This document shows positions 9,868-57,694 of a stretch of DNA of 64,000 nucleotides, in pieces (within the stretch, counting starts at the first letter, position 1; the number at the start of each line of letters is the position of its first letter). A model generated the notes under the pieces. The model ran no database searches, had not been told where the DNA came from, and was given only the letters and a program-made list of their open reading frames with translations. The position numbers and the translations under genes were made by a program. Origin of the DNA: Microbacteriaceae bacterium (GTDB taxonomy: Bacteria > Actinomycetota > Actinomycetes > Actinomycetales > Microbacteriaceae); contig JAODMH010000042.1 of the NCBI GenBank assembly GCA_025465035.1, forward strand, positions 149 to 64,148, given 5' to 3'.

Positions 9868-9899
9868 TGATCCGCCGGGCGTTTTCGCCCGGCGGATCA
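9868..9899 (+). terminator. Perfect 14-bp stem with a TTTT loop between the binding-protein and permease genes (attenuating or stabilising hairpin)
   Basis: TGATCCGCCGGGCG-TTTT-CGCCCGGCGGATCA. Confidence 0.7.
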
Positions 9900-9932
9900 T
9901 CCATGACCGAAACATACTGAACGGAGGATGGC

Positions 9933-10802
9933 ATGGTCTGGCTCAGCTCACGCTGGAAGATCGCCATCATGGCCGCACCGGCTCTGATCGTCTTCACAGC
10001 GCTGATCGTGTATCCGGTGATCTACTCCGCCGGCTACAGCCTCACTGACTTCGCCGGCTTCGGCGATCCGGCATTCGTCGGATTGAAGAACTACATCGAC
10101 CTGGGCAACGACCCGTTCTTTTGGTCCTCATTGAGGAACACGATCATTATTCTCGTAGTGAGCCTGGTGATCCTGGTGCCGGGATCGTTCGGCCTTGCGC
10201 TGTTACTTCGTCGACGTTTCCCCGGCGGAGGGGCACTGCGCGCCCTCGTCTTCGCACCGGTCATCATCGCGCCGATCCTGGTTGGACTTATCTGGGTGTT
10301 CATCCTCGACCCCAAGATCGGGCTCCTCGACCGGCTATTCGGTGCGCTCGGGTTGCCCCAGCCCGAGTGGATCGGCGGCAACGTACTGACCCCATACTCG
10401 GTAGCACTCGTTTTCGTCTGGGGCAGCGTGGGTTTCGCCATGACGATCTTCTATGCGGGGCTCCAGCAGCTGCCCACGGACATCCTCGAAGCGAGCTCGC
10501 TTGACGGCGCGAGCGGCTGGAAGCAACTCCTCTACATCACAGTGCCGCTCATGAAAGAGAGCTTCGCGATCGCGACAGTACTTCTCATCACCAACGTGTT
10601 CAAGATCTTCGAGCTCGTCTTCGTTCTCACCAATGGGGGACCGGTACATCGTTCGGAGACGCTCGTCAGCTACATGTACTTCATTACGTTCAACAACCAG
10701 CAATACGGGTCTGGAATGGCGCTTGCCGTCATCATCACCGTCCTGGGGGCGGTTGTATCGCTCGGCTATTTATTGCTCCTGAGAGGCAGGAAATCAGCGT
10801 GA
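9933..10802 (+). CDS. Carbohydrate ABC transporter permease
   Basis: Hydrophobic segments; EAA loop LEASSLDGASGWKQLLYITVPL. Confidence 0.92.
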   Translation: MVWLSSRWKIAIMAAPALIVFTALIVYPVIYSAGYSLTDFAGFGDPAFVGLKNYIDLGNDPFFWSSLRNTIIILVVSLVILVPGSFGLALLLRRRFPGGGALRALVFAPVIIAPILVGLIWVFILDPKIGLLDRLFGALGLPQPEWIGGNVLTPYSVALVFVWGSVGFAMTIFYAGLQQLPTDILEASSLDGASGWKQLLYITVPLMKESFAIATVLLITNVFKIFELVFVLTNGGPVHRSETLVSYMYFITFNNQQYGSGMALAVIITVLGAVVSLGYLLLLRGRKSA

Positions 10803-30642: not shown

Positions 30643-30897
30643 TCAGGCGGGCTGGGAGCTGCCATCCGACGTAATGCCGAGCGCGCTCTTGATGCGGTCC
30701 TCGTCCGCGTCGTCCGCCCGAGCGGCCGCCACGTTCGCCTCGGTCACCGCCCGCAGGACCTCTTCGCGCTGGATCTTCACGCCCTTCGGCGCGTCGATGC
30801 CGATGCGGACGCCATCGCCGCGCGCGTCGAGGATGGTGACGACGATATCGTCACCGATGACGATCCGCTCCCCCGCCTTGCGTGTCAGCACCAGCAT
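30643..30897 (-). CDS. csrA: Carbon storage regulator CsrA (RNA-binding translational repressor) with C-terminal extension
   Basis: MLVLTRKAGERIVIGDDI...VRIGIDAPKGVKIQREEV. Confidence 0.96.
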   Translation of the reverse strand: MLVLTRKAGERIVIGDDIVVTILDARGDGVRIGIDAPKGVKIQREEVLRAVTEANVAAARADDADEDRIKSALGITSDGSSQPA

Positions 30898-30901
30898 CAG
30901 A

Positions 30902-31762
30902 TCAGCCTATCGAACCGCTTTCCAACCAGCCGACCTGGAGACCCAGTTCGTGCACGGTTTTCGGCGTTGTAGTGGAATTGCTACCGATGACGGCGACGGC
31001 ATCGACGTGCACGGCGACCTGGACGGCCTTCACCCAACGCGCCGTGTCCTCCGGCTTGCGGCCGGCATCCACGGCGACCCAGACCTGATCGGCCTGCAAG
31101 AAATGGAGGGCGAAAACCGAGTCATCGTCGAGTCCGGAGCGCGGAATCCCCAGCGCCACGAAGACACTGTGGTCCTCACGCACCCCCGCCGCGCGGGCCG
31201 CGAGAGCGCTACGGCGATCGCTCACCCGGAAGAGGCTGTCGTCGGCGATGGTTCCCACGACGCTGAGCGAGCGCGTACCCGCGGCGGCCGACATCTCCCG
31301 CGCTACCTCGAGCGCGTCGTTGCCCAGACCGATCACGGCCACCAGGTCACCCGCCCCGGAGAGCGGCGCCTGCCGGAACACCGTTGGGCCATCCAGCGCC
31401 GGAACGATCTGGGCGGTGTTATAGGTGAGGTCGGCCATGATCGCGTCGAAGTCGACCGAGTTCGTCGAGAGCCTGGGGATGGCGTCGACCAGATGCGCGC
31501 GGGCCTCCTCGGAGTCCGCACCCTCCAGCAGTTGCGCGATTCCGGCCCGTGCCGGGAGGTCGAAATTGTGGGCGTCGCGAGCCGTGCCATCCGGAACGTC
31601 CACCTCGACCTCATAACGGCGGTGCGCGAAGAAGCCCTGGATACCACCGCTGGTCACCGCTTTGATCGCGACGACCTTGGGGTGCGGACCGTGCTCCGCC
31701 AGGATCCTGGCGTTCAGTTCGTCGAGGGAATGGCCCTCAAGCTGAAATCGATTCGGCGACAC
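30902..31762 (-). CDS. FlhF-like protein with degenerate GTPase domain
   Basis: Directly after flhA; N-terminus resembles FlhF (GGIQGFF..RRYEVEV); no GxxGxGKT P-loop. Confidence 0.6.
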   Translation of the reverse strand: MSPNRFQLEGHSLDELNARILAEHGPHPKVVAIKAVTSGGIQGFFAHRRYEVEVDVPDGTARDAHNFDLPARAGIAQLLEGADSEEARAHLVDAIPRLSTNSVDFDAIMADLTYNTAQIVPALDGPTVFRQAPLSGAGDLVAVIGLGNDALEVAREMSAAAGTRSLSVVGTIADDSLFRVSDRRSALAARAAGVREDHSVFVALGIPRSGLDDDSVFALHFLQADQVWVAVDAGRKPEDTARWVKAVQVAVHVDAVAVIGSNSTTTPKTVHELGLQVGWLESGSIG

Positions 31763-33788
31763 GCACCACTCCAACGGTCTCGATGTTCACGTTGGCCGAG
31801 GTGACCTCCTGATAGGAGAGCACCGGGAGCCCGCCGGACTGGGCGGAGACGAGACGACGGATGGCGGGCCGAAGCGCCGGCGCACAGACCAGAACCGCGG
31901 ACTGCCCTGTCGCCTCCACCCGGGAGACGGCGTCGCGCACCGAGGTCAGCACGGCGTCGAGGTTGTCCTGGTCCATGAGGATCTGCGTACCCAGCTCCGA
32001 CGGTCGCAATCCCTCGAGCATCGACTGCTCGAGCAGCGGGTCGATCATGATCACGCGCAGCGTCTGCTCATCGAGGTAGCGCGCGGTGAGCGCCGGACCG
32101 AGCGCCAGTCGGGCGGACTCGATGAGCCCCTCCGGCTCGGTGGAGGCCTTGGCCCGCAGCGACAGCGCCTCGTAGATGCGGGGGAGGTCGTTGATGGGGA
32201 TCTGCTCGACGAGGAGGCCCTGCAAAACCCTTTGCACCTCGGCGAGCGTCAGCAGGTTCGGCACGAGTTCTTCGACGGCGGAGGGGTTGACCTGCTTGAC
32301 ACCCTCGGTGAGCACGCGCACGTCCTCACGCGTGAGCAACCGCGCGGCATTGCTGGTGATGATCGCCGAGAGGTGAGTCACGACCACGGAGACCCTGTCG
32401 ATCACCGTCGCCCCGGCAATCTCGGCGCTGTGGCGCATCTCGCTCGGCACCCACTTCCCGGCGAGGCCGAAGACCGGCTCGATCGTGATGTCACCGGGCA
32501 GTGAGTCGAGGGCGTCGCCGAGAGCAAGCACCTTGCCGGCGGGGGCGACTCCGCGGCCCACCTCGACGCCGGCGATGCGGATGACGTAGGTGGATGATGG
32601 CAGCTCCACGCTGTCCCTTGTCCGCACCGGGGGTACGACGATGCCGAGTTCCATGGCAATCTTGCGGCGCAGAGCACGCACCCGCGCGAGCAGGTCGTCA
32701 GAGGCGTCGGAGACGATGTCCACCAGGTCGGGCGCGAGCAGTATCTCGAGGGCGTGTACGCGCATCTGCTCCATGAGGTGCTCGGTAGTGAGCGTCGTGT
32801 CGTCCGAACCGACGGATGCCGCTTCCGCCGTCTGCTTGCCGGCCGCGGCCGCGCGCGCCCTGATGCGCTGGGCGATGACCAGCAGTGCCGCGCCGACGGC
32901 CACGAACGGGATGATCGGCATACCGGGGATGAACGCCATGAGGATCGCGGCGCAGCCGGCGATGATGAGGGCATTGCGCGACTGGGTGAGCTGGGCGGAC
33001 GCCGTCGTGCCCATGTCGGCTTCGGCGTTCGACCTGGTCACGATCATGCCGGTGGAGACCGCCATGAGCAGTGCGGGAATCTGGCTGACGAGCCCGTCGC
33101 CGATGGTCAGCAGTGTGTACTTACTCACCGCGTCGCCGATCGAGAGGCCGTTTTGGATCATGCCGATGGCGATGCCGCCCACGATGTTGATGAGGATGAT
33201 CACGATGCCCGCAATGGCATCCCCCTTGACGAACTTGGACGCGCCGTCCATCGCGCCGTAGAAGTCCGCCTCCGCAGAGACCTCCGCCCGCCGCTCGCGG
33301 GCCTGGATGTCGGTGATGAGACCGGCATTGAGGTCGGCGTCGATCGCCATCTGCTTTCCGGGCATCGCGTCGAGGGTGAAGCGGGCGCCGACCTCGGCGA
33401 CACGCTCGGCGCCCTTCGTGACGACGACGAACTGGATGACCACGAGGATCAGGAAGATCACGGCGCCGATGATGATGGAGCCACCGACCGCGACATGGCC
33501 GAAGGCCGCAATGACATCTCCGGCGTACCCCTGGCCGAGCACGAGCCTCGTGGAGGCGACATTGAGCCCGAGCCTGAACAGCGTCGCCACGAGCAGAAGG
33601 GACGGGAAGACGGAGAAGTCGAGCGGCTTCTTGACGAACATGGTGGTGAGGAGCACGACCAGCGCGAGCAGGATGTTGATGATGATCAGCACATCGAGCA
33701 CGAACGCCGGGACCGGCACCACGAGCAGCAGCACGATTCCGACGACGCCGACCGGAACGGCCAGCTTCGAGAAATTGCGGTTCTTCAT
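31737..33788 (-). CDS. flhA: Flagellar export gate protein FlhA
   Basis: DFSVFPSLLL, RVAEVGARFTLDAMPGKQMAIDADL, DFYGAMDGASKFVKGDA. Confidence 0.97.
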   Translation of the reverse strand: MKNRNFSKLAVPVGVVGIVLLLVVPVPAFVLDVLIIINILLALVVLLTTMFVKKPLDFSVFPSLLLVATLFRLGLNVASTRLVLGQGYAGDVIAAFGHVAVGGSIIIGAVIFLILVVIQFVVVTKGAERVAEVGARFTLDAMPGKQMAIDADLNAGLITDIQARERRAEVSAEADFYGAMDGASKFVKGDAIAGIVIILINIVGGIAIGMIQNGLSIGDAVSKYTLLTIGDGLVSQIPALLMAVSTGMIVTRSNAEADMGTTASAQLTQSRNALIIAGCAAILMAFIPGMPIIPFVAVGAALLVIAQRIRARAAAAGKQTAEAASVGSDDTTLTTEHLMEQMRVHALEILLAPDLVDIVSDASDDLLARVRALRRKIAMELGIVVPPVRTRDSVELPSSTYVIRIAGVEVGRGVAPAGKVLALGDALDSLPGDITIEPVFGLAGKWVPSEMRHSAEIAGATVIDRVSVVVTHLSAIITSNAARLLTREDVRVLTEGVKQVNPSAVEELVPNLLTLAEVQRVLQGLLVEQIPINDLPRIYEALSLRAKASTEPEGLIESARLALGPALTARYLDEQTLRVIMIDPLLEQSMLEGLRPSELGTQILMDQDNLDAVLTSVRDAVSRVEATGQSAVLVCAPALRPAIRRLVSAQSGGLPVLSYQEVTSANVNIETVGVVRVAESISA

Positions 33789-38852: not shown

Positions 38853-39719
38853 CTATCGGCCGGTGGCGCTCGCAGGTAAGAGAAAGGGGGCGATCTTGTC
38901 TGGGGTCGTCGAGGCACCAGGGGCCACACCCTTGAGCACATCCGGAATGAGTGCGCGCACGGCCTCCGGCGCGTTGGACAGGACGACGATGTCGACGCGG
39001 CGATTCCGGGCCAGTGCCTCCGGCGCCGTGCCGGCTGCGAGAGGACGGGAGGATCCGTATCCGACGGCCCCGATCTTCTCCGGCGACACCCCGCCGGACT
39101 CGACCATGCGGCGCAACACCTGGACGGCGCGTCCGGAGGAGAGTTCCCAGTTGGTCGGGAAGGGACTCTGCGGTTGGCGTAAGTCGGCATGACCCTCGAC
39201 CGAGATGTTGTATGGAGCACTGGCGAGAATCGGGGCGATCGTGTCGAGCACGCTCGGAGCGATCCCGACGAGTGCGGTGCTGTTGGGCGTAAAAAAGGTC
39301 TGGCTGTCGACGAGCCTGATCGTCAGTCCGCGCTCGTCGAGTTGGAACTGCACAGTGCCAGAAAGGCCGTGTACAGCGAGCGCCGCGCTGATGCTCTCCT
39401 GCAGCGCCTTGAGATTCTGCACCTCCTTGATGGCTGCCTGGCCGTTGGCGAAGCTCTGCGACTTGTTGTCGGCCGCGCTCGGCGGGACTATGGTGCCCTG
39501 CGCGACGTCGAGCTTCCCGATATTCGTCACCCCGAAACCGGTGGCGAGCGAGTTGCGAAGCTTGTCGAACTTGTTTTGGTCGATGGTGGACATCGCGAAT
39601 AACACGATGAACATGCACATGAGTACCGTGACCATGTCCATGTAGGACGCCATCCAGCGCTCCGTCGGCTCCTGATGGTGGTCCTCCTCCTCGTCGACGC
39701 GGATTCGACGCCTGGCCAT
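38853..39719 (-). CDS. motB: Flagellar stator protein MotB
   Basis: RWMASYMDMVTVLMCMFIVLFAMS; OmpA-like ISVEGHAD, NWELSSGRA, NRRVDI. Confidence 0.96.
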   Translation of the reverse strand: MARRRIRVDEEEDHHQEPTERWMASYMDMVTVLMCMFIVLFAMSTIDQNKFDKLRNSLATGFGVTNIGKLDVAQGTIVPPSAADNKSQSFANGQAAIKEVQNLKALQESISAALAVHGLSGTVQFQLDERGLTIRLVDSQTFFTPNSTALVGIAPSVLDTIAPILASAPYNISVEGHADLRQPQSPFPTNWELSSGRAVQVLRRMVESGGVSPEKIGAVGYGSSRPLAAGTAPEALARNRRVDIVVLSNAPEAVRALIPDVLKGVAPGASTTPDKIAPFLLPASATGR

Positions 39720-40492: not shown

Positions 40493-40785
40493 CAGATCTT
40501 TCTGGGACGAAGAGGAGCGGCGTGTTTCGTCTCATCGACGTCGTCGACGAGACCCAGCGAACGAGGGCCGGAGAGGTGGCCGCCCGCCGACAATTCGTGG
40601 GTGAGGGCGATGACGGTGGCCCGGTAACGGGACACGCGGTCGATCACCTCGGCCATCGATTCGGTGACGATGTACTTGGCGCCGTCGACCATCACGATGG
40701 TGGTGTCCGGGTTCGAATGGATGCGCTCAATCAGATCGGGGTTGAGCGCAAACTGGCTGTCGTTCAGCCGCGTTACGACGATCAT
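40492..40785 (-). CDS. flbD: Flagellar FlbD (SwrD) family protein
   Basis: MIVVTRLNDSQFALNPDLIERI..NPDTTI. Confidence 0.92.
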   Translation of the reverse strand: MIVVTRLNDSQFALNPDLIERIHSNPDTTIVMVDGAKYIVTESMAEVIDRVSRYRATVIALTHELSAGGHLSGPRSLGLVDDVDETKHAAPLRPRKI

Positions 40786-40809
40786 GAGCGCATCCCTGCT
40801 TGTTCAAGA

Positions 40810-40826
40810 GGGCCCTTCCTGGGCCC
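40810..40826 (-). promoter_or_regulatory. Putative CsrA-binding hairpin in the flbD-motAB leader (GGGCCC-AGGAA-GGGCCC)
   Basis: Perfect 6-bp stem with GGA in the loop, downstream of a sigma28-type promoter. Confidence 0.55.
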
Positions 40827-40836
40827 TTACACAGCA

Positions 40837-40863
40837 CTATCGGTCACTCGGTCGTCCGCGTAA
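40837..40863 (-). promoter_or_regulatory. Sigma28/FliA-type promoter TTAC-N15-ACCGATAG (flbD-motAB-fliM operon)
   Basis: Matches three other copies with an identical 15-nt spacer. Confidence 0.75.
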
Positions 40864-49198: not shown

Positions 49199-49590
49199 CA
49201 GGAATGTCCAATCTGAAGTGCGGCCTGGTAGGTCTCTTTCGCGCGGTCGACGACTGCCGCGTTGGCCTGGTAGCCGCGCTGCGCCATGATGAGCTGGCCC
49301 ATCTGCGACGCCAGGTCGATATCCGGGTAGCGCACGTAACCCTGCGCATCGGCGATGGGGTTGGTCGGCTCGTAGACCAGCCGCCCGGCGGCGCTTCCGA
49401 AGGCGGCGCCCTTGACGTACACCCCGCTGTTGCCTGCCCCCTCCTGGGCGACGACGTAGCGGGCCTGGAAGGCGGGGCCACTGGTCGGCTTCGCAGTGTT
49501 GATGTTCGCCAGGTTGTCGGAGACCGCATCGAGCCACTTACGGTGCATGGTGAGCCCGGTGCCGGCAATGCCGATCGCGTCGAAGGTCAT
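49198..49590 (-). CDS. flgC: Flagellar basal-body rod protein FlgC
   Basis: SDNLANINT, PIADAQGYVRYPDIDL, AQRGYQAN. Confidence 0.96.
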   Translation of the reverse strand: MTFDAIGIAGTGLTMHRKWLDAVSDNLANINTAKPTSGPAFQARYVVAQEGAGNSGVYVKGAAFGSAAGRLVYEPTNPIADAQGYVRYPDIDLASQMGQLIMAQRGYQANAAVVDRAKETYQAALQIGHS

Positions 49591-49931
49591 CAGCTCGTCC
49601 TCATTGCGGCGCGCACGGCGGAGAATTCACTCCCGGCGGCCTGGGTGGCGAACTGGTACCGCAGCACTGTGTCGATGTTGGAGAGGGTCTCGGTGTCGAG
49701 GTTGACGTTGTTTCCGTTGGGCTGAGTTGGCTCGAGCGATGGGGCGATCTGCGCGGTCACGCGGCCGTCGCCGTTCTGCACCGACGCCGCCAGGGCGTCC
49801 TCGAAGACGACGCGCTTGGCCTGGTAGTTGGGCGTATTGACGTTCGCGATGTTATTGGCGATGGTGCGTTGACGCAGCGCTAGTGCGTCCAGTGCACTGC
49901 CGAGCGCCACAGAGGTGACCGAATCGAGCAC
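49590..49931 (-). CDS. flgB: Flagellar basal-body rod protein FlgB
   Basis: RQRTIANNIANVNTPNY, NGNNVNLD; GTG start inferred. Confidence 0.94.
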   Translation of the reverse strand: MLDSVTSVALGSALDALALRQRTIANNIANVNTPNYQAKRVVFEDALAASVQNGDGRVTAQIAPSLEPTQPNGNNVNLDTETLSNIDTVLRYQFATQAAGSEFSAVRAAMRTS

Positions 49932-49934
49932 AGC

Positions 49935-49999
49935 AATCCGTTTCGTCATCAAAAAGTGATGGCCGATCCGTGGCCTGTCGATGAGCGATCCGTGCTCAC
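49935..49999 (-). promoter_or_regulatory. flgB leader with two hairpins carrying identical ACGGAUC loops plus a third ACGGAU at the RBS (putative CsrA sites)
   Basis: GTGAGC-ACGGATC-GCTCAT (49981-49999), GGCC-ACGGATC-GGCC (49961-49975), ACGGATT (49935-49941). Confidence 0.65.
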
Positions 50000-50005
50000 T
50001 GTTAG

Positions 50006-50032
50006 CTATCGGTCGAGGCTGCGGAAGCGTTA
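50006..50032 (-). promoter_or_regulatory. Sigma28/FliA-type promoter TAAC-N15-ACCGATAG (flgB basal-body operon)
   Basis: Matches the sigma28 consensus TAAA-N15-GCCGATAA and three other copies. Confidence 0.75.
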
Positions 50033-50055
50033 GCCATCTGCCCGATTACCGAAGG

Positions 50056-50376
50056 TCAGCTCGTGACATCGAGGTACACGGAAGAACCCTGCATGCTCGA
50101 CGGAATGGATCGCAGGGCCGTGAGATGGCGGCCGGTGACGTCGCGGCGGCCTTCGAGCCGCCGGATCGTATCGCCCTGCGCACTCAGCAGGCGGGAGGCA
50201 TGGCCGCGCAGCGACGCCGGAAGCGGACCGATCTGGTCGGGGATGATCCACACCACAGCAGGGGCCTCCTCGTCGCCATCCCAGGTCGCGGCATCGTTCG
50301 CGATGGCAAGTCCGGCCTCCATCGCTTCGAGCGCGGCTACCCAACTTTCCCAGTTGGCGGTTCGGAGCTCAGGCAA
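50056..50376 (-). CDS. Hypothetical helical flagellar protein in the FliT position
   Basis: Overlaps the fliS stop; TTG start inferred; amphipathic helices. Confidence 0.6.
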   Translation of the reverse strand: MPELRTANWESWVAALEAMEAGLAIANDAATWDGDEEAPAVVWIIPDQIGPLPASLRGHASRLLSAQGDTIRRLEGRRDVTGRHLTALRSIPSSMQGSSVYLDVTS

Positions 50377-50797
50377 CGCCGAGTTCCCGCGAGCCACCCG
50401 GCTCCGGTCTCCTCTGCACAGAGAGCTGGCCGGCGGCCTCATGCCAGGCCTGGCGCAACGGTTCGAGCAGGTCGATGGCCTCGCGGATGCTGACCGTGTC
50501 CCGTCGCACATTGGCCGTAATCAGCAGACCGTTGCAGTAGTTGTAGAGGGCGAGCAGATTGTCGCCGCCCTCCCACAGTTCGACCTTCAACGATGACCTG
50601 AGTTCGGCGACGATCGCCTGGGCGTGCAAGAGGTTGGACGAGAGCACCGGCCAGTCGTGCCGCGAATGCGCCGACTCCGCACGGTCGAGATCGAGGAGCA
50701 GCCGGTCGTAGAGCATGGTGAGCAGTCGAACAGGCGAAGCCGAGAGTATGGCGTCGTTGTTGTACCGGGAGCGCTGGGCGTTGAGGGTCATCGTCAT
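50369..50797 (-). CDS. fliS: Flagellin chaperone FliS
   Basis: ILSASPVRLLTMLYDR, NLLHAQAIV, NLLALYNY, LRQAWHEA. Confidence 0.94.
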   Translation of the reverse strand: MTMTLNAQRSRYNNDAILSASPVRLLTMLYDRLLLDLDRAESAHSRHDWPVLSSNLLHAQAIVAELRSSLKVELWEGGDNLLALYNYCNGLLITANVRRDTVSIREAIDLLEPLRQAWHEAAGQLSVQRRPEPGGSRELGVA

Positions 50798-50799
50798 GA

Positions 50800-52191
50800 T
50801 CAGTTTCCCGTCGAAGTCGAAGTCGAAGTCGTGAACGATGCGAGTTGCGAGGTGAGATTGGCCTGCTGCGCCTTGAGGTTGCTCAGCGTCACTTCCATAG
50901 CCGAGTAGGTGCGCTGGAGGCTGGATTTGCGGCTGGCAAGCCTGAGATCCCAGTCGGCGACCTGATTGCCCAGGCTCTGTGCCTGGGCCTGACTGCCGGT
51001 AATCTTCGCCGTGAGAGTTCCCGTGTATTTATCGGATGCCTGGGTCGCCACGGCTGCGACGCGCGACGCTATCTCGGTGACGGCCGCGTTCACCGTGGTC
51101 GGATCGGCAACGAGCGCGGCGGCGAACTTGTCTTTGTCGAAGCTGAGGGTGCCATCGCTGGTGATCGAGATGCCGTACTCCGACGGGGAGTGACCGTTGA
51201 CGGGCATCGACGCGGCGCTGAGAATCTTCTGGTTGATGTCGCGCACCGTGCTGTCGCCGGCGAAGATCCCGCTCTTCACCGAGGACTTCCCGTCGGCCCC
51301 GATGCTCGACGCCACCGCCGAGTTCGTGCTGACAAGCGAGAAGACGGACTTGAGCGAATCGACGAGGCTACTCGCGAGCGCGCTGGCCTGTGCCGCATCC
51401 CGCGCGACAGAGACAGTGACCGGATCGACGGAGACGGCAGAAACAGTCACGGACACGCCGGGCAGCAGATCGGCGAAGGTATTGCTCGCCGAGGTGATGA
51501 CCTGCTCGGCCCCCGTCCCGCCCCAGAGGGTGATCCTGGCATCCTGCGCGGTCTTGATCATGGCCGCCCCAGGGGCGGTCAGCACATCGTTGGCGGCGGA
51601 GACGTTCGCGGCGCTTCCCGTATGCACCTCGAAGGAGGAGTTGGCGCCCGTCGTCGTGCTGGAGAACTGGATGCGGTACTGCTGTGCTCCGGAGACGGGA
51701 TCGGTGCCGGCAGCGATCTTCGTCGCGGTCACTCCGGCGGCGGAGCCGTTGATCGCCTTGACGACATCGTCCAGCGAGTTCGAGGTCGGCGTGATCTCGA
51801 GGCGTGTTCCATCGTGCCCGACGATGGTGAGCGTGCCTGGCGACGGCCAGGACGCCATGGCCGCAGAAACTCCGACCTGGGCGGTGGCGAGCGCGCTGAC
51901 CACGACCTGCAGCTCGCCGGTGGCGGCGCCGGTTCCGGCCGTGGCCGTGACGGTGGCCGAACTCGTGGCCGCCTTGTAGAGGTCGAGGGCGCCGGGCTTC
52001 GCCGTCGACGTGGCGAGATCCGCGAGAGAGGCGATCTTCGCATTGAGCGACTGGTAGGCGGAGATCTCGTTGTTGACGGTCGTGATCTGGTTCTTGAGAA
52101 GCGTCTGGGGAACGGCCTCCGCCTGCATCAGGCTCGCGATGAGGGTCGTGGTGTCCAGGCCGCTGGACAGTCCATCGAGTGAGATTCCCAT
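50800..52191 (-). CDS. fliD: Flagellar filament cap protein FliD
   Basis: GLSSGLDTTTLIASLM, AQDA, TSASNTF, LQRTYSAME. Confidence 0.95.
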   Translation of the reverse strand: MGISLDGLSSGLDTTTLIASLMQAEAVPQTLLKNQITTVNNEISAYQSLNAKIASLADLATSTAKPGALDLYKAATSSATVTATAGTGAATGELQVVVSALATAQVGVSAAMASWPSPGTLTIVGHDGTRLEITPTSNSLDDVVKAINGSAAGVTATKIAAGTDPVSGAQQYRIQFSSTTTGANSSFEVHTGSAANVSAANDVLTAPGAAMIKTAQDARITLWGGTGAEQVITSASNTFADLLPGVSVTVSAVSVDPVTVSVARDAAQASALASSLVDSLKSVFSLVSTNSAVASSIGADGKSSVKSGIFAGDSTVRDINQKILSAASMPVNGHSPSEYGISITSDGTLSFDKDKFAAALVADPTTVNAAVTEIASRVAAVATQASDKYTGTLTAKITGSQAQAQSLGNQVADWDLRLASRKSSLQRTYSAMEVTLSNLKAQQANLTSQLASFTTSTSTSTGN

Positions 52192-52238
52192 GTCGTTCTC
52201 CGATCTCGTCACATGGTGTTACGGGTTTGTGGACGGTG

Positions 52239-52298
52239 AACGCCCGGCGGCAATCACGGTGAGAGGTCCAGTTCCCACCTCAGCCGCCGCCGGGCGTT
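52239..52298 (-). terminator. Inverted repeat downstream of fliC (13-bp arms)
   Basis: AACGCCCGGCGGC ... GCCGCCGGGCGTT. Confidence 0.6.
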
Positions 52299-52312
52299 GA
52301 TCGTTGCCCGAA

Positions 52313-53149
52313 CTAGCGGAGGAGGGTGAGAACGCCCTGGTTCGCCTGGTTGGCCTGCGCCAGCATCGCGGTGCCGGCCTGCGACAGGATGTTCGAGCGG
52401 GTGTACTTCACCATCTCGGATGCCATGTCGGTATCGGTGATGCGCGACTTCGCCGCCGTCAGGTTCTCGGTGGTGACACTGAGGTTGCGGATGACGCTCT
52501 CGAACCGGTTCTGCTGTGCACCGAGGCTCGCACGAGCCGTCGACACTGCGCTGATGTTGGTGTCGAGTGAGGCGATCGTGGTGAGCGCGTTGGCGGAGCT
52601 GGAGAAGCCCGTCGCGGCGAGGCCCGAGATCGTGGTTCCGATAGCGGCGACATCCGCGGTGCTGACGCTGATCTGGTCCTCGGCCGCAACCGATCCGCCA
52701 CCGACCTGGAAGGTCAGCGACACGCCGCCGGCGCCCAGCAGCTTCGTGCCGTTGAAGTTGGCCGAAGCACCGATGCGGGTGAGCTCGCTGCCGAGCTGCG
52801 TGACCTCGGTCGCGATCGCCGTACGCGAGTCGGCGTTGTTCGAGTCGTTACCGGCCTGGACCGCCAGGTCGCGAACGCGCTGCAGGATGGTCTGAACCTC
52901 GGAGAGCGAACCTTCAGCCGTCTGAATGACGCTGATGCCGTCCTGCGCGTTGCGGCTGGCGACCGTGAGGCCTCCGACCTGCGACTGCAGTCCCTGGGAG
53001 ATTGCGAGACCAGCTGCGTCATCCGCGGCGTGGTTGATGCGAAGACCACTGGAGAGCTTCTCCAGCGACTTGGCGAGATCGTTCTGCGTGTTGGTGAGGT
53101 TCCGGTAGGAGTTGAGCGCCGAAACGTTGGTGTTGACCTGCATACCCAT
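52313..53149 (-). CDS. fliC: Flagellin (278 aa, short)
   Basis: QVNTNVSAL, LEKLSSGLRINHAADDAAGL, NAQDGIS, FNGTKLL, ITDTDMASEM. Confidence 0.98.
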   Translation of the reverse strand: MGMQVNTNVSALNSYRNLTNTQNDLAKSLEKLSSGLRINHAADDAAGLAISQGLQSQVGGLTVASRNAQDGISVIQTAEGSLSEVQTILQRVRDLAVQAGNDSNNADSRTAIATEVTQLGSELTRIGASANFNGTKLLGAGGVSLTFQVGGGSVAAEDQISVSTADVAAIGTTISGLAATGFSSSANALTTIASLDTNISAVSTARASLGAQQNRFESVIRNLSVTTENLTAAKSRITDTDMASEMVKYTRSNILSQAGTAMLAQANQANQGVLTLLR

Positions 53150-53157
53150 GATGTTTT

Positions 53158-53201
53158 CCTCCGTGATGTGGGTTGTTCTGCCGGCCCATCCGTGGTCCGA
53201 C
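53158..53201 (-). promoter_or_regulatory. fliC leader with putative CsrA sites: hairpin loop ACGGAUG and CACGGAGG overlapping the SD
   Basis: GTCGGACC-ACGGATG-GGCCGGC (53180-53201) and CACGGAGG (53158-53165); same two-site layout as Bacillus hag. Confidence 0.7.
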
Positions 53202-53209
53202 ACCTTGAG

Positions 53210-53236
53210 CTATCGGCAGCGCGCCTCCGCGCGTTA
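53210..53236 (-). promoter_or_regulatory. Sigma28/FliA-type promoter TAAC-N15-GCCGATAG (fliC)
   Basis: Near-consensus sigma28 promoter upstream of flagellin. Confidence 0.8.
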
Positions 53237-53263: not shown

Positions 53264-54079
53264 TCAGGATGCCGCCGCCGCAGTCGGCTGTTGGTGGGCG
53301 ATGTGCGACATCCCGGCGAGGGCGTTGTTGGCTACGCGAGCCAGGTACGCACTGCGTGCCGCGGGAGCGATTCGCGAGATCGGAACGTGGTCGGCCGCCA
53401 AATAATCTGCGTAGTGGATCTCGAGCCCATCGCGGAGAAGGCGGATCGCCTCTGCGCGCTGCTGTGAGACGGCGGAATGGGTGATCCCCAGTTCTTCCGC
53501 GATCTCCTTGACCGAACGATCATCGAAATAGACCTGCGTCACGATGGTGCGCATCCTTTCCGGAAGCGATTCGATAGCGGCAGCGAGGTAGCGGAGACGC
53601 TCGGCAGAAAGGATCGACTCCTCGGGGAGGGCAGTGTCCGCTATGAGGAACTCTGCCGTGGTGTCATCGAGTGCGGAAACGACCCTGGCGGCATCCGCGA
53701 GACCGGCGGCAGCCTCTTCGCGGTCGACGCCCATCGCGGAGGCGATCTCGTCGACGCTCGGCGCCCGGCCGAGACCGGCGGTGAGTGCCTCCTGGACCGC
53801 TGTGGTTTCCTTGATGCGTCGGCGGGCGCCGCGGGTGGCCCAGTCGTTGGAGCGCATCTCGTCGGCGAAGGCGCCGATAATGCGTTTGCGTGCGAAGGCA
53901 CCGAACGGAACGCCGAGGTCCGGGTCATAAGAGTCGGCGGAAGTGATGAGAGCGACGGCGCCCGCCGATGCGAGATCATCTCGTGAGAGATGCGTGGCCT
54001 TCGCCCATACCTCCGACACCAGATAGCCCACCAGCGGGAGATTCTCCACCACCAGGGCGTTGCGGTCTGTCCGATTCAC
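53264..54079 (-). CDS. fliA: FliA/WhiG-family RNA polymerase sigma factor
   Basis: ENLPLV, DDLASAG, FGAFARKRIIGA..DEMRSNDW, LPERMR, KEIAEELGITHSAVSQ. Confidence 0.9.
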   Translation of the reverse strand: MNRTDRNALVVENLPLVGYLVSEVWAKATHLSRDDLASAGAVALITSADSYDPDLGVPFGAFARKRIIGAFADEMRSNDWATRGARRRIKETTAVQEALTAGLGRAPSVDEIASAMGVDREEAAAGLADAARVVSALDDTTAEFLIADTALPEESILSAERLRYLAAAIESLPERMRTIVTQVYFDDRSVKEIAEELGITHSAVSQQRAEAIRLLRDGLEIHYADYLAADHVPISRIAPAARSAYLARVANNALAGMSHIAHQQPTAAAAS

Positions 54080-54411: not shown

Positions 54412-54499
54412 TCCTCCATGAGCGAGTTGGAGAGCCATGCAGTCGGTTGCACGATCTGGAGGAACGTCCGCACTAGCCGACGATCGAACTGGAGCAGAC

Positions 54500-54985
54500 A
54501 TGAGCGCGAACGAACTATCGGCGTGTTTGTGGCGCGAGCGCGAACTCCTCGACCTCCTGGCCTTCAAGCTCGAGGAGGAGCAGTTCCTCCTGACCTCCGG
54601 CAAGTCCCGCTGGCTGCAGTACGCCACCCGCGAGGTCGAGCAGGTCATGGAGCGCCTTCGCAGCGCTGGCCTCGCCCGCACCGTCGAGGCCGCTATCGTC
54701 GCCGCCGAATGGGGCGCAGCGGAGAATGTCACCCTGCGTGAGCTCGTCGCCACGGCACCGTCCGGTCCATGGGCCGACATTTTCGCCGCCCATCTCGCCG
54801 CCCTCACCGAGCAGACCAGCCAGATCAAGGAACTTCGCGACCTCAACGAGCACTACCTACGCACGGCCATCCGGTTCATCCAAGAGGCTCAGGTCGACGG
54901 TGGCACGGAGAGCGGCACCTACACCGCCAACGGAGCGCCAGGTGCGACGTCGGCGTCTGCCCAGATGTTCGACTTCACGTTGTGA
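54500..54985 (+). CDS. flgN: Flagellar chaperone FlgN
   Basis: LSACLWRERELLDLLAFKLEEE; precedes flgK. Confidence 0.85.
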   Translation: MSANELSACLWRERELLDLLAFKLEEEQFLLTSGKSRWLQYATREVEQVMERLRSAGLARTVEAAIVAAEWGAAENVTLRELVATAPSGPWADIFAAHLAALTEQTSQIKELRDLNEHYLRTAIRFIQEAQVDGGTESGTYTANGAPGATSASAQMFDFTL

Positions 54986-54995
54986 GCCGTAGCGA

Positions 54996-56420
54996 ATGAG
55001 TACTTTCAGCGGGCTCAACACGGCCTACACCGGGCTGAACGCCGCGAGACAGGGTCTCGACGTCGTCGGGCAGAACATCTCCAACGCCTCCACGACCGGC
55101 TACACCCGCCAGCGCGTGACCACCTCCGCCATCGGCTCCCTCGCGCAGACCGGACTGCTGTCCGGTCGCGCGCAGGTCGGGCAGGGCGTATCCGTCGATG
55201 GGATCGCCCGCCTGGGGGACGCCTATCTCGATGCGAGGGTGCGCACCTCGGCCGCGACATCCGGCAACCTCGCGGTGCGGTCGAATGCGCTCACATCAAT
55301 CCAGACCTCCCTGCACGAGCCGGGGGATAGCGGGATCTCCGCTCAACTGCAGACCTTCTGGGCCTCCTGGCAGGACGTTGCCAATCGGCCAGGCGACTCG
55401 GCTCCCGCCGGCGTGCTGCTCGAGAAGGCGGGCACCCTCGCCTCGCAGATCGCCAGCGGCTACACGGCCGTCAACGACGAATGGTCTCAGGTGCGCAGCA
55501 AGCTCAACGGCATGGCCGCCGAGCTCAACGATGCCGGCGCGCAGGTCGCCGCTCTGAACGGCCAGATCCGTTCGACCCTCGCGGCGGGCGGATCCGTCAA
55601 CGAGCTCCTTGATAAGCGCACCATCCTCACAACCACGATCGCCGCTCTCACGGGAGGCACCGTACGCGAACTCCCGGACGGCACGGCGGAGGTGCTCGTC
55701 GGGGGCAACGCCCTGGTCTCCGGTGACACGTTCCGGGCCGTCACGGTCACCGGAAGCAACACCATGGCCGCCGCCGCCGGCTCTCCGGTCGGCCTGGAAT
55801 GGGCGAATCGGCCGGGTCTCTCCGTGGCGGTCGAGTCAGGTGAGATGGCTGGTTCTATCGCAATGCTCGCCCCGTCCAATGTCGCCGGCACGGGCGGCGC
55901 GATCGCCGAGGCCGCCGCGAGCTACAACGGCTTCGCCAGCTACCTCGCGAATGCTGTCAACGCCGTCCACCAGGCAGGAACCACCAGTACCGGCGCCTCC
56001 GGCCTCGACTTCTTCGCCGTCTCCGCGACCGGCCCTGCAGCCCTCGGGCTCAGTGTCATCCCGACGACGGCCGCGGGGATCGCTACCGGCGCCGCGGGTG
56101 CAGGGAATCTCGACGGATCCAACGCCGACGCGATCGCCGCTCTCGGTGCCGCCAGCAACTCACCTGACTCTGTCTGGTCCGCCTTCGTGATCACGATCGG
56201 CGTTTCGACCAAGGGCGCGCTACAGCAGGCCACGCTCGCCGAATCGGCGGCGACGTCGGCATCCGGCGCTCAGTTGGCAAACTCCTCGGTCGACCTGGAC
56301 CAGGAGAACGTCAACATGATCACCTTCCAGACCGCATACCAGGGTGCAGCCCGCGTGATGACGGCGGTCGATCAGATGCTCGACGTGCTCATCAATCACA
56401 CCGGAATCGTCGGAAGGTAA
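54996..56420 (+). CDS. flgK: Hook-associated protein FlgK
   Basis: GLNTAYTGL, GQNISNASTTGYTRQRV, VDLDQENVNMITFQTAYQGAARV. Confidence 0.96.
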   Translation: MSTFSGLNTAYTGLNAARQGLDVVGQNISNASTTGYTRQRVTTSAIGSLAQTGLLSGRAQVGQGVSVDGIARLGDAYLDARVRTSAATSGNLAVRSNALTSIQTSLHEPGDSGISAQLQTFWASWQDVANRPGDSAPAGVLLEKAGTLASQIASGYTAVNDEWSQVRSKLNGMAAELNDAGAQVAALNGQIRSTLAAGGSVNELLDKRTILTTTIAALTGGTVRELPDGTAEVLVGGNALVSGDTFRAVTVTGSNTMAAAAGSPVGLEWANRPGLSVAVESGEMAGSIAMLAPSNVAGTGGAIAEAAASYNGFASYLANAVNAVHQAGTTSTGASGLDFFAVSATGPAALGLSVIPTTAAGIATGAAGAGNLDGSNADAIAALGAASNSPDSVWSAFVITIGVSTKGALQQATLAESAATSASGAQLANSSVDLDQENVNMITFQTAYQGAARVMTAVDQMLDVLINHTGIVGR

Positions 56421-56423
56421 GCC

Positions 56424-57314
56424 GTGTTCACTCGTGTGACAGCCCAGACCAGAATGACCAACGCTCAGCTCAACCTGCAGGTGAGTGCGGCCCAGCTCGC
56501 GCGCCTGCAAGACACCGCGTCGAGCCTCAAGAAGATCTCGGTTCCCTCCGACGATCCGGCCGCCGCCGCGGATTCCATGCGCGTGCGCGCCGCACAGGCC
56601 GCCACCGCCCAATATGCCCGGAACATCGATGACGGCAACAACTGGCTTACCACCACCGACTCGGCGATGTCGGCCGTCAACGACATCCTCGGCCGCGTAC
56701 GCGACCTCACCGTCCAGGGCGCCAACGACGGAGCCCTGAACTCCGTTTCCAAGGAGGCGATCGCCAAGGAGCTCGAGGGGCTGAAGAGTGATCTCCTCAG
56801 TAAGGCGAACACCACCTACCTCGGGCGCACCGTCTTCGCCGGGAATTCGGATGCCGGGGTCGCCTTCGACGCCACCACCTACAACTTCAGCGGCAGCGGC
56901 AGCGGCAGCGGCGTGCAGCGTCGCATCGACAGCAACACGACTGTGCAGGTGGACGCCAACGGCGCCGCCGTCTTCGGCACCGGTGCGAGTTCGGTCTTCG
57001 CACTCGTCGACAACATAGTCGCCGACCTGCGCGCGGGTGTGAACGTCGGCTCCCGCATCAGCGCCATCGACACCGCCGCGAATGCCGTGCTCAGCGCGCA
57101 GAGCTCGGTCGGCGCGCGCTCCGCGCAGATCACGAAAGCGAAGGACGCGAACTTGCAAACCACCGGAGCGCTCGAAGCGCAGCGATCGGGAATCGAAGAT
57201 GTCGATCTCAGTCAGATCATCATCCAGCTCAAGCAGCAGGAGGTCACCTACCAGGCCGCTCTCGCCGTGACCTCGCGTACGCTCCAGCCGACCCTCATGG
57301 ACTTCCTCCGATGA
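56424..57314 (+). CDS. flgL: Hook-associated protein FlgL
   Basis: PSDDPAAA, QYARNI, ANTTYLGRTVFAG, YQAALAVTSRTLQPTLMDFLR. Confidence 0.95.
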   Translation: MFTRVTAQTRMTNAQLNLQVSAAQLARLQDTASSLKKISVPSDDPAAAADSMRVRAAQAATAQYARNIDDGNNWLTTTDSAMSAVNDILGRVRDLTVQGANDGALNSVSKEAIAKELEGLKSDLLSKANTTYLGRTVFAGNSDAGVAFDATTYNFSGSGSGSGVQRRIDSNTTVQVDANGAAVFGTGASSVFALVDNIVADLRAGVNVGSRISAIDTAANAVLSAQSSVGARSAQITKAKDANLQTTGALEAQRSGIEDVDLSQIIIQLKQQEVTYQAALAVTSRTLQPTLMDFLR

Positions 57315-57694
57315 GCGCCAGCCTGACCTTCGTCACCCCGATCCCCGGGCTTGAGCCACTTCGCAACTTCACGCTCACCGAGATCGAAGGCGTCAACGGT
57401 CTGTACACGCTACGCGCGGTCGACAACGACGGCATCCGTCTCTTCGTGATCGATGCTGCGTTCTACCTGCCCGACTACTCGCCCGAGATCTCCGACGAGC
57501 AGAGCAGCGCGCTCGACGTGCAGCGGCCGGAAGACGCCATGGTGCTCGTGGTCGCGAACCCCGGCGATGGCGGCACGAGTATGAACCTCATGGCACCGAT
57601 CATCGTGAACGCCACGACCGGAGTCTGTGCGCAGATCATCCTGGAGGGCCAGGACTGGCCGCTGCGAGCGGAGCTCTCAACGCGGTCCGCCTGA
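57311..57694 (+). CDS. fliW: Flagellar assembly factor FliW (CsrA antagonist)
   Basis: FVTPIPGL, FVID...YSPEI, MNLMAPIIVN, AQIIL. Confidence 0.92.
   Translation: MSASLTFVTPIPGLEPLRNFTLTEIEGVNGLYTLRAVDNDGIRLFVIDAAFYLPDYSPEISDEQSSALDVQRPEDAMVLVVANPGDGGTSMNLMAPIIVNATTGVCAQIILEGQDWPLRAELSTRSA

Follow-up and report, generated by a model that had tools for sequence, protein, structure and literature searches.

CsrA and FliW in described flagellar systems

The closest described system is the Hag-FliW-CsrA partner switch of Bacillus subtilis (Yakhnin 2007; Mukherjee 2011; reviewed in PMC7652899). The hag leader is transcribed from a sigma-28-type promoter and presents one GGA in the loop of a hairpin and another where the ribosome's Shine-Dalgarno contact lies, and the CsrA of B. 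subtilis has a C-terminal extension and FliW as its antagonist. A CsrA of this form and a FliW are likewise encoded in the 64,000-nucleotide stretch of Microbacteriaceae DNA analyzed here (the window), in which, as in its relatives, the fliC leader copies the hag layout. The leader that is our subject differs from that of hag in that it precedes flgB, the first rod gene of the basal body, rather than flagellin, in that its hosts are actinobacteria, and in that it has two tandem hairpins with invariant stems at its 5' end, whereas a GGA at the ribosome-binding site is optional. Since flgB and not flagellin lies downstream (fliC has its own BS1 and BS2 sites), we consider it at most an extension of the Hag-FliW-CsrA switch and not a strict member.

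In Campylobacter jejuni the switch also extends past flagellin to structural genes, as CsrA under the control of FliW binds the leaders of flgI, flaG, flaB, flgA, and flgM (Dugar 2016, PMC4894983). However, those secondary sites are of lower affinity and form no conserved tandem-hairpin module, the phylum is a different one with a hierarchy of sigma-54 and sigma-28, and a flgB-leader element of the tandem-hairpin form is not reported there (PMC4894983). CsrA can also activate. On Escherichia coli flhDC its binding blocks 5'-end-dependent attack by RNase E (Yakhnin 2013, in PMC7652899), although E. coli has sRNA antagonists instead of FliW and the product of flhDC is a transcription factor rather than a part of the structure. 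On ymdA and moaA, bound CsrA prevents the formation of RNA structure that hides the initiation region (PMC7492729; PMC7652899). The latter logic resembles a pairing of hairpin loop and start codon described below, which is predicted, heterogeneous among clades and weak in the window.

Among actinobacteria, the motility island of Kineococcus radiotolerans has csrA at the end of the cluster, no FlgM homolog and a predicted BS2-like site in the flagellin transcript; that study considered the flagellin leader only, and hairpins in the flgB leader are undescribed there (PMC2587704). An earlier model-made interpretation of this DNA (hereafter the sequence-only reading) knew of no actinobacterial precedent for such an element, and the literature that we searched held no description of it either. 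Rfam gave zero matches at gathering scores over the whole window and, at E<=10, a chance snoRNA match only within 49800–50150. The element is a well-defined cis-regulatory RNA motif absent from Rfam.

Layout of the flgB leader

On the minus strand, from 50001 to 49929, the leader reads AACA GUGAGC ACGGAUC GCUCAU CGACA GGCC ACGGAUC GGCC AUCACUUUUUGAUGACGAA ACGGAU UGCU GUG. The first hairpin (HP1, 49981–49999, minus strand) is GUGAGC-ACGGAUC-GCUCAU, with a 4-bp GAGC/GCUC core extended by U-A and G.U pairs, and the second (HP2, 49961–49975, minus strand) is GGCC-ACGGAUC-GGCC, with a 4-bp stem; each presents CA-C-GGA-U in a 7-nt loop. A third ACGGAU (49936–49941, minus strand) overlaps the Shine-Dalgarno position, its GGA (49939–49937) ending 5 nt 5' of the GUG start. 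The GGA-to-GGA distances are 22 nt from HP1 to HP2 and 30 nt from HP2 to the third site. The leader sequence thereby agrees with the anatomy first proposed, that of distinct stems, a shared ACGGAUC loop and a third ACGGAU over the ribosome-binding region. We assigned GUG 49931 as the start of flgB (49590–49931, minus strand; 113 aa; Pfam Flg_bb_rod) because most of its homologs have 113 aa and align from M-L-D. The gene heads the minus-strand string flgB-flgC-fliE-fliF-fliG-fliH-fliI-fliJ...flgE, which has a terminator at 40985–40956.

The candidate trans-acting factor and its antagonist are encoded in the same window. CsrA (84 aa; gene at 30643–30897, minus strand) is the product of the last gene of the flagellar string, 3' of flhA, and was identified by Pfam (CsrA, 2.9e-24) and by the NCBIfam csrA equivalog, above its cut-off. 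Among solved structures it is closest to 5DMB_D, a Geobacillus CsrA crystallized with FliW, to which residues 2–73 align, including the C-terminal extension. Based on this similarity, the CsrA of the window appears to be of the FliW-binding type, and fliW itself is present at 57311–57694 on the plus strand as the last gene of flgN-flgK-flgL-fliW (Pfam FliW, 1.2e-26). Homologs of csrA share contigs with flgB in at least six related genomes (L002, L004, L013, L027, L032, and L066), and we presume that the CsrA encoded in the window is the factor that acts on the flgB leader.

Promoter and transcript

A FliA/WhiG (sigma-28)-type promoter is predicted for the flgB operon at 50006–50033 (minus strand), with CTAAC at 50033–50029, a 15-nt spacer and the −10 element ACCGATAG at 50013–50006. 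As a pattern match, TAAC-N15-ACCGATAG (50032–50006) agrees with the sigma-28 layout of a TAAA-like −35 element, a spacer of ~15 nt and a GCCGATAA-like −10 element; the hairpins lie directly 3' of it, as had been claimed. Transcription is predicted to start at ~50000–49998, at or just before HP1, an exact position that we infer from the promoter match. A scan of the promoter region found no sigma-70-like promoter and no terminator. There are five matches of the TAAC-N15-GCCGATAR type in the window, four of which head flagellar operons (flgN, fliC, flgB, and flbD). These promoters are presumably read by a FliA/WhiG-like sigma factor encoded at 53264–54079 (minus strand), which has Pfam sigma-70 regions 2, 3, and 4 and whose best NCBIfam match, the FliA_WhiG subfamily (4.5e-41), is below the curated cut-off.

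RNA contigs of two related species start inside the HP1 loop (L080:5949 and L034:5945) and continue through HP2 into flgB, and none crosses the promoter. The hairpins are therefore co-transcribed with flgB and transcription does not start downstream of HP2, an outcome that the sequence-only reading had named as one that would refute it. The sole RNA contig on the window itself, from a metatranscriptome (49883–50065, depth 2.8), reaches upstream of the predicted promoter and is uninformative on the start. Since this contig passes the promoter and there is no terminator before flgB, read-through from the fliC-to-orf106 genes (50056–53149) is possible. We also considered HP2 with its U-run as a terminator or attenuator and rejected it, as no leader other than those of the window, L001, and L045 has the U-run and no terminator was predicted by the scan.

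Conservation and genomic distribution

Every one of the 81 orthologous flgB leaders from Microbacteriaceae and Micrococcaceae has the promoter, HP1, and HP2, the set being built on the best 80 matches whose loci were cut with 6-kb flanks, fliW and csrA lying beyond reach. Throughout this set the promoter has the TAAC-N15-GCCGATAR layout, the HP1 core GAGC-A.GGA..-GCUC and the HP2 stem GGCC/GGCC are invariant, and the GGA of both loops is invariant, while the N position of the loop varies (C, G, U, and A) and the spacers diverge in sequence. In all relatives HP1 begins 6–10 nt past the −10 element and 7–9 nt separate HP1 from HP2. A lack of loop conservation had been named as a second refuting observation, and it is the opposite that was found. 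A GGA at the ribosome-binding site, 7–13 nt 5' of the start, is present in the window and in 61 of the 81 leaders and is absent from the other 20 and from several distant ones (L204, L207, L208, and L209).

Beyond these families, the element was detected in seven of eight actinomycete lineages from other orders, and it was found in Motilibacter, Vallicoccus, Angustibacter, Sporichthya, and four uncultured lineages. The HP1 core is kept in seven distant lineages, and the HP2 stem there is CGCC/GGCG, GCGCC/GGCGC or GCC/GGC, the fourth pair being swapped from G-C to C-G. Luedemannella has csrA and fliW and lacks the tandem hairpins. An exact-pattern scan of metagenome contigs returned 123 instances, of which eight were at contig ends; of the 115 assessable copies, 110 precede flgB, the remaining five precede fliH and none is elsewhere. 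Within the window neither ACGGATC (11 occurrences vs. 19 ± 4.4 expected) nor GGA-loop hairpins (11 vs. 14 ± 3.7 expected) are enriched, and the case for the element therefore rests on comparative conservation.

CsrA-type sites in the flgB, fliC, and flbD leaders

The CsrA SELEX consensus is RUACARGGAUGU, in hairpins mostly of ≤4 bp (PMC7652899). The HP1 and HP2 loops fit it with C at −3, A at −2, and U at +1, at frequencies of 100, 100, and 96–98%, respectively, although some loop positions are fixed by the extraction pattern, which matched in all 81 leaders. In both, as expected for a CsrA leader, a short stem (4–6 bp) closes a 7-nt loop that contains GGA. A single CsrA dimer reportedly bridges sites ~10–63 nt apart (Mercante 2009), and the flgB-leader spacings of 22 and 30 nt lie inside this range.

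The motif C-A-N-GGA-U is common to HP1 and HP2 and to the fliC BS1 and BS2 sites of the same genomes. In the window the fliC leader (53157–53199, minus strand), our internal reference for this motif, has BS1 as the hairpin CGGACC-ACGGAU-GGGCCG (53199–53182), while its BS2, CACGGAGGA (53165–53157), covers the Shine-Dalgarno sequence, and both sites are present in 69 of 70 orthologous fliC leaders. The BS1 stem covaries, with four pairs changed on both sides and none of 500 shuffles reaching the observed score. As this hairpin is supported by covariation, we conclude that motifs of this class function at the RNA level in these genomes. The claim that the flgB loops resemble CsrA sites is thus upheld, both by the SELEX consensus and by the flagellin leaders.

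The flbD-motA-motB leader (40783–40863, minus strand) is, judged by its sites, a third CsrA-type leader of the cluster. Behind a sigma-28-type promoter (40863–40837) it has the hairpin GGGCCC-AGGAA-GGGCCC (40826–40810) and a second site, CAGGGAUG, on the Shine-Dalgarno sequence (40798–40791, minus strand), with ATG at 40785. The Sporichthya flbD leader has GGCCG-ACGGAU-CGGCC and two more GGA sites.

Folding and covariation

When the 5' 44 nt of the leader were folded alone, exactly HP1 and HP2 were formed (MFE −14.1 kcal/mol, ensemble frequency 0.53, z −1.61). In the fold of the whole window leader a competing MFE structure disrupts HP1, and full-length leaders are predicted to favor alternative folds, the HP2 pairing probability exceeding 0.5 in 1% of leaders. 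Covariation across flgB leaders had been proposed as a check of the hairpins. Their conservation stood (81/81, and 7/8 in distant lineages), but covariation was no higher than in shuffles (65 distinct core sequences among the 81 leaders). Because the core stems never vary, covariation is nearly silent in these close relatives. The sole covariation in HP1 is at one pair, A-U changing to G.U in three sequences and to G-C in one, and the outer fifth and sixth pairs form in fewer than half of the sequences. These A-U/G.U/G-C changes, and the G-C to C-G change in HP2, preserve pairing on the sense RNA strand only. For a plain CsrA hairpin, stems fixed at the level of sequence are out of the ordinary and point to a possible extra constraint.

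Proposed mechanism and direction of control

The flgB leader is a real, conserved and probably CsrA-bound element, and it suggests that actinobacteria couple basal-body synthesis to the CsrA-FliW-flagellin switch. The reading that we favor, and consider likely, is that the leader of this operon (rod, MS-ring, export ATPase, and hook) is a platform for CsrA that represses flgB translation in the window. The FliA/WhiG-type promoter would start the RNA at or just 5' of HP1, so that the nascent RNA would fold first into two 4-bp hairpins. Each would show C-A-N-GGA-U in its 7-nt loop, at a 22-nt spacing that would suit both RNA-binding faces of a CsrA dimer. CsrA would anchor with high affinity at HP1 and HP2, and the same or a second dimer would cover the ACGGAU at the ribosome-binding site and lower flgB translation initiation, a step modeled on CsrA at BS1 and BS2 of hag in B. 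subtilis. As flagellin leaves the cytoplasm, FliW would be freed and CsrA removed. We infer the binding of CsrA, the bridging of sites and especially the direction of control. Several observations speak against this reading. The ribosome-binding-region site, on which the repression step depends, is dispensed with in the 20 close and several distant leaders noted above, and a shutdown of basal-body genes at high free CsrA, ahead of hook-basal-body completion, is awkward physiologically. The invariant stems, the alternative folds of full-length leaders, the lack of tandem hairpins in Luedemannella and the possible read-through into flgB count against it as well. FlgM is reported missing in these actinobacterial classes (PMC10746217, PMC2587704), and that the flgB leader replaces the FlgM checkpoint, as was proposed in the sequence-only reading, is speculation.

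Since the HP2 loop complements the start-codon region in many lineages (in the window not clearly so), CsrA could activate through the same sites rather than repress. Without CsrA, the HP2 loop and in part that of HP1 would pair with an anti-loop box at the flgB start codon or at codons 3–5, shutting the initiation region, and RNase J or RNase E may attack the bare 5' end. With CsrA at the loops, HP1 and HP2 would stay folded, the initiation region would be released and the 5' end would perhaps be protected, much as described for E. coli, where flhDC and also ymdA and moaA are precedents for activation (PMC7652899, PMC7492729). Free CsrA would then favor the basal body and repress fliC and flbD-motAB, and its capture by FliW would reverse both. 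We regard this toggle as a live alternative, though overall a rather unlikely one. It is prompted by the position of both strong sites at the extreme 5' end, distant from the ribosome footprint, with the ribosome-binding-site GGA dispensable, and by a series of complements. In L205, L206, L208, and L209, CACGGACC of the HP2 loop and GGUCCGUG, in which GUG is the start codon, are exactly complementary; elsewhere ACGGACU pairs with AGUCCGU (in L202), CACGGAUU with AAUCCGUG at +7 in Paenarthrobacter, AGGGAUC with GAUCCC in L011 and CACGG(A)CCGGCC with GGCCGGCCGUG in L207. Loop complementarity was significant against a shuffled initiation region (p < 0.05) in 27 of 60 distinct leaders, although the pairing sequences are related and hence not independent, and the position of the anti-loop box differs by clade, precluding a column-wise covariation test. 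Predicted accessibility of −12 to +12 was lower with the native 5' region than with composition-matched shuffles (mean z −1.14; 55% of leaders below −1 and none above +1), but the window itself has an accessibility z of +0.55 and a longest Watson-Crick complement of 4 nt, and whole-region duplex energy between the 5' element and the initiation region was no better than in shuffles (mean z −0.39). Synonymous codon usage at codons 3–6 of flgB is atypical and fixed (GAA 54 vs. GAG 3; GUG 83%; ACU 56%), and the fliH copies of the module retain FlgB-like first codons, GUGCUCGAUCCCGUG; codon bias near starts, however, has alternative explanations.

Actinobacteria lack FlgM (PMC10746217, PMC2587704), and at least four flagellar operons of the window have the same sigma-28-type promoter. 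A CsrA-type element that is invariant in at least two families and recognizable in several orders offers a concrete handle on how they order flagellar assembly. An extension of the toggle, which we hold to be unlikely, is that in actinobacteria without FlgM all flagellar operons depend on one sigma-28-type promoter and one protein orders assembly translationally, free CsrA keeping flgB (in some genomes fliH) on and blocking fliC and flbD-motAB. In the continuation of the same idea, which seems to us equally doubtful, hairpins held by CsrA would stop the pairing of HP2 loop and start codon, and export of flagellin would let FliW capture CsrA and flip both effects. If true, this would be a single-regulator switch from middle to late genes (class 2 to class 3 of enteric bacteria), acting through a cassette of promoter, leader and first codons. 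A real pairing of loop and start codon would add a conserved example of CsrA-dependent activation. Control of flgB by CsrA would also mean that the FliW-CsrA switch serves not flagellin homeostasis alone but the flagellum's structural core too.

Explanations without CsrA

The preferred reading, CsrA-dependent repression of flgB, is also to be weighed against explanations in which CsrA has no part. Stem-loops at the 5' terminus are known stabilizers of mRNA, and as HP1 begins at the predicted +1, the hairpins could serve to slow 5'-end-dependent decay or could be the site of another GGA-loop-binding protein; the invariance of GAGC/GCUC and GGCC/GGCC does exceed the known needs of CsrA recognition. 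A pure stabilizer would leave the loop free, however, and here C-A-N-GGA-U is invariant, varying only at the position that is degenerate in CsrA sites. Moreover, the leaders of fliC and flbD in these genomes have the same loop, and no candidate for another binding protein surfaced, short of a systematic search. We consider such a role improbable.

Least probable is a DNA operator at which a transcription factor binds the direct repeats CACGGATCG, for although these are 22 bp (two helical turns) apart just 3' of the promoter, are conserved in sequence beyond pairing alone, accompany a promoter in the fliH copies too and in many relatives have an inverted copy in the first codons (ATCCGTG at +8 being the motif as read from the opposite strand), each sits between self-complementary arms that differ from one repeat to the other and that a direct-repeat-binding protein would not need, the G.U-type substitutions keep pairing on the sense strand only, and the motif equals the CsrA RNA consensus and recurs in the covarying fliC RNA hairpin and over the fliC Shine-Dalgarno sequence.

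Other motif matches

The fifth sigma-28-type promoter match in the window is at 38879–38853, and its role is unexplained. A second pair of ACGGATC, on the minus strand inside flgK (55565/55591, 26 nt apart), has no flanking stems and falls on unrelated coding-strand peptides, and we attribute it to chance. Other conserved GGA hairpins in the loci of relatives (at +1400, +4800, and similar positions) are within coding sequence and look like codon conservation.

The flgB leader and its transcripts

The flagellar genes around the flgB leader all lie on the minus strand, in the order FliA/WhiG-like sigma gene (53264-54079), fliC (52313-53149), fliD, fliS (50369-50797), an unnamed conserved 106-aa ORF (50056-50376), and then flgB, flgC, fliE, fliF, fliG, fliH, fliI and onward. 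The 106-aa ORF has a TTG start and an overlap with the fliS stop codon. Pfam and NCBIfam gave no match for it, and it may encode a FliT-like chaperone. The flgB start is a GUG at 49931, and its homologs are mostly 113 aa long, with the alignment running from M-L-D. The 124-nt gap upstream holds, on the minus strand, a sigma-28-type promoter (CTAAC-N15-ACCGATAG, 50033-50006) and, 6 nt further on, the tandem GGA-loop hairpins HP1 (GUGAGC-ACGGAUC-GCUCAU, 49999-49981) and HP2 (GGCC-ACGGAUC-GGCC, 49975-49961), separated by a CGACA spacer. A third ACGGAU (49941-49936) follows after 19 nt, with UUGCU directly 5' of the GUG start. The sequence-only reading had described these hairpins, and their coordinates, correctly.

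The isolated 5' 44 nt of the leader folded into exactly HP1 and HP2 (-14.1 kcal/mol, ensemble frequency 0.53). For the full leader of the window the minimum-energy fold competes with the hairpin pair, and folding z-scores were modest (-1.6 to -1.8). A terminator or attenuator reading of the leader was excluded, as there is no conserved U-tract.

RNA evidence is available from two related species (loci L080 and L034), where contigs from an oligo-dT run labelled transcriptomic (soil sample) and from an apparent RNA run begin at 5949 and 5945, respectively. Each contig begins within the HP1 loop and spans HP2 into flgB; the upstream-gene contigs end before the promoter. A transcription start 3' of HP2, which the sequence-only reading had held would count against its proposal, is therefore excluded; the contigs fit a start at HP1, at a resolution coarser than single nucleotides. 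For the organism of the window itself there is a single RNA contig, from a metatranscriptome (49883-50065, depth 2.8), and it spans only the flgB leader and 65 nt 5' of it, promoter included. Read-through is possible because no terminator was found between the 106-aa ORF and flgB; the contig suggests transcription continuing from the upstream operon or else carried-over DNA.

Conservation of the tandem hairpins

Within the window alone the element is not beyond chance, as neither ACGGATC (11 copies vs 19 +/- 4.4 expected) nor A-N-GGA-loop hairpins (11 vs 14 +/- 3.7) are enriched; the comparative evidence is decisive. Two more ACGGATC copies, 26 nt apart and antisense to flgK (55565-55597, minus strand), have no flanking stems and unrelated coding-strand peptides, and we judged them coincidental rather than a second element.

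A protein-guided scan with one genome per species gave the 80 best-matching loci, from Microbacteriaceae and Micrococcaceae. Together with the window, 81/81 leaders have TAAC-N15-GCCGATAR, 6-10 nt, a GAGC/GCUC hairpin with loop A-N-GGA-NN, 7-9 nt, and a GGCC/GGCC hairpin with loop A-N-GGA-NN. Loop conservation in orthologous leaders, on which the earlier proposal had been made to depend, is thus complete for GGA, which is invariant in both hairpins; all four bases occur at the second loop position. In this set, conservation does not extend to the spacers or to the 25-70 nt 5' of the start codon. Covariation in the flgB hairpins, proposed earlier as a check, is almost silent because the stems GAGC/GCUC and GGCC/GGCC are identical in all 81, and what stands of that check is a few changes that keep pairing on the sense RNA strand only: in HP1 an A-U pair becomes G.U (three sequences) or G-C (one sequence), and in HP2 of distant lineages a G-C to C-G swap gives CGCC/GGCG or GCGCC/GGCGC.

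Scanning metagenome contigs for the exact pattern gave 123 instances, 110 directly 5' of flgB, five before fliH and eight at contig ends, with none in another gene context. In 48 of these instances the 106-aa ORF is recognisably kept 5' of the element. One of the eight at contig ends, after fliG, is a sixth fliH-type instance that the contig end cuts. In all six of these contigs (L090, L095, L153, L161, L184, and L185) the whole cassette of sigma-28-type promoter, HP1 and HP2 recurs 5' of fliH. The fliH start is readable in five, and four of these open with FlgB-like codons (MLDP(V/A)(I/M)S three times, VLDSA once; FlgB has MLDSVTS, and the FliH of the window MNMSLDTEF). These copies suggest a joint duplication of the cassette and the first flgB codons, and hint that those codons are part of the functional unit.

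More distant flgB loci, from other orders, were fetched using Motilibacter FlgB as a stepping stone, and the tandem element was found in Motilibacter, Vallicoccus, Angustibacter, Sporichthya, and four uncultured lineages. The flgB leader of Luedemannella flava (L203, Micromonosporaceae; 9877-10000) has no tandem hairpins, only CCGGAC and AUGGAGG. This genome has fliW-csrA after flgL, in a Bacillus-like order, and CsrA-type fliC leaders, so the element is not universal in csrA-positive flagellated actinobacteria.

Relation to flagellin leaders and CsrA

The flagellin (fliC) leaders of the same genomes (n=70) served as an internal reference for the motif. In 69 of the 70 there is a hairpin, BS1, with loop A-N-GGA-Y, and a second site, BS2 ([A/C]UCA[C/U]GGAGGA), over the Shine-Dalgarno sequence, the same layout as in the B. 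subtilis hag leader. The fliC leader of the window (53157-53236, minus strand) has a sigma-28-type promoter, a BS1 loop of ACGGAU, and BS2 as CACGGAGGA on the Shine-Dalgarno. The BS1 stem covaries (four pairs changed on both sides, 87% of cells pairing, and 0/500 shuffles reaching the score). C at -3, A at -2, and GGA are common to HP1, HP2, BS1 and BS2, and U at +1 to the three hairpin classes. As judged from sequence, the motif fits the CsrA SELEX consensus RUACARGGAUGU and the preference for short stems, since selected hairpins mostly had <=4 base pairs (PMC7652899).

The window encodes both presumed protein partners: csrA (30643-30897; Pfam and NCBIfam equivalog matches, with Geobacillus CsrA from a FliW complex as best solved relative) and fliW (57311-57694). 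CsrA homologs share a contig with flgB in at least six related genomes. A 290-aa ORF between flhA and csrA (30902-31774, minus strand), in the place of FlhF or FlhG in other bacteria, had no Pfam or NCBIfam match.

Models of flgB control

The best-supported interpretation is that the 5' element is a CsrA-binding leader. In the window, the third ACGGAU is at the Shine-Dalgarno position, which makes hag-like repression the simplest mechanism: CsrA anchored at HP1 and HP2, whose GGAs are 22 nt apart, would in addition cover the ACGGAU at the ribosome-binding site, with its GGA 30 nt 3' of the HP2 GGA, and FliW would relieve this block. We propose this by analogy and with reservations, because the ribosome-binding-site GGA is optional (missing in 20/81 close leaders and several distant ones), HP2 is seldom predicted to persist in full-length leaders, and in many lineages the HP2 loop shows complementarity to the initiation region.

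This complementarity is the basis of the main rival, activation, in which binding of CsrA would free the initiation region from predicted pairing with the HP2 loop. The complementarity tracks the variable loop positions: CACGGACC could pair with GGUCCGUG, start codon included, in four lineages (L205, L206, L208, and L209), ACGGACU with AGUCCGU in Vallicoccus (L202), CACGGAUU with AAUCCGUG at +7 in Paenarthrobacter, and AGGGAUC with GAUCCC in L011, and L207 has an 11-bp match with one bulge. The complementary box, seen also in L046, lies at or just 3' of the flgB start codon and shifts between clades. Matches were better than to shuffled initiation regions in 27 of 60 distinct leaders (p<0.05), the region -12..+12 is predicted to be less accessible with the native 5' element than with composition-matched shuffles (mean z -1.14, none > +1), and flgB codons 3-6 show unusually fixed synonymous choices. 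CsrA opening the initiation region is the described activation of the ymdA and moaA leaders (PMC7492729; PMC7652899), and the 5' location of the flgB hairpins recalls the flhDC mechanism. However, we rank activation as the main rival and not the lead because the window has only weak complementarity (49931-49915; accessibility z +0.55, longest Watson-Crick match 4 nt) and the whole-region duplex test was not significant.

If the hairpins were instead a CsrA-independent stabiliser, the loop sequence would be left free to vary. A DNA operator is unlikely, as the arms of each repeat differ and are self-complementary, substitutions respect RNA pairing on one strand, and the same loop motif also occurs in an RNA hairpin that covaries and over a Shine-Dalgarno sequence.

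As a CsrA-binding leader, the flgB element would join the CsrA-type regulatory leaders of flagellar genes, in an unusually conserved and modular form; should the activation switch be confirmed, it would be a variant kind of such leaders. Its nearest known counterparts are the B. subtilis hag leader with its partner switch, the C. jejuni CsrA-FliW regulon, in which CsrA binds many flagellar leaders (PMC4894983), and the E. coli flhDC leader. For actinobacteria, the literature searched gave two relevant reports: in 2008, a note on Kineococcus placed a predicted CsrA site in the flagellin transcript (PMC2587704), and in 2023 a survey included csrA and fliW in its list of flagellar genes (PMC10746217). 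Hairpins in the flgB leader appear in neither report, and Rfam has no family for the element, in keeping with the earlier statement that no actinobacterial description was known.

Other flagellar leaders in the window

The flgN-flgK-flgL-fliW leader (54412-54502, plus strand) has three CUGGAG-type GGA motifs and no clear GGA-loop hairpin; it opens with UCCUCCA, for which pairing to a UGGAGGA 40 nt further 3' is predicted. The flbD-motA-motB leader (40783-40863, minus strand) is preceded by a strong intrinsic terminator 3' of flgE (40985-40956) and has its own sigma-28-type promoter, a hairpin GGGCCC-AGGAA-GGGCCC, and CAGGGAUG on the Shine-Dalgarno; the Sporichthya flbD leader is equivalent. 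With this third operon the motif is a feature of the flagellar regulon, as CsrA control would lead one to expect. Since csrA lies downstream in the same gene string, CsrA may regulate its own transcription unit. A fifth promoter match, TTAC-N15-GCCGATAG (38853-38879, minus strand), followed by GGUCCAGGAAC, is located in or beside the motB-region ORFs and may be an internal promoter.
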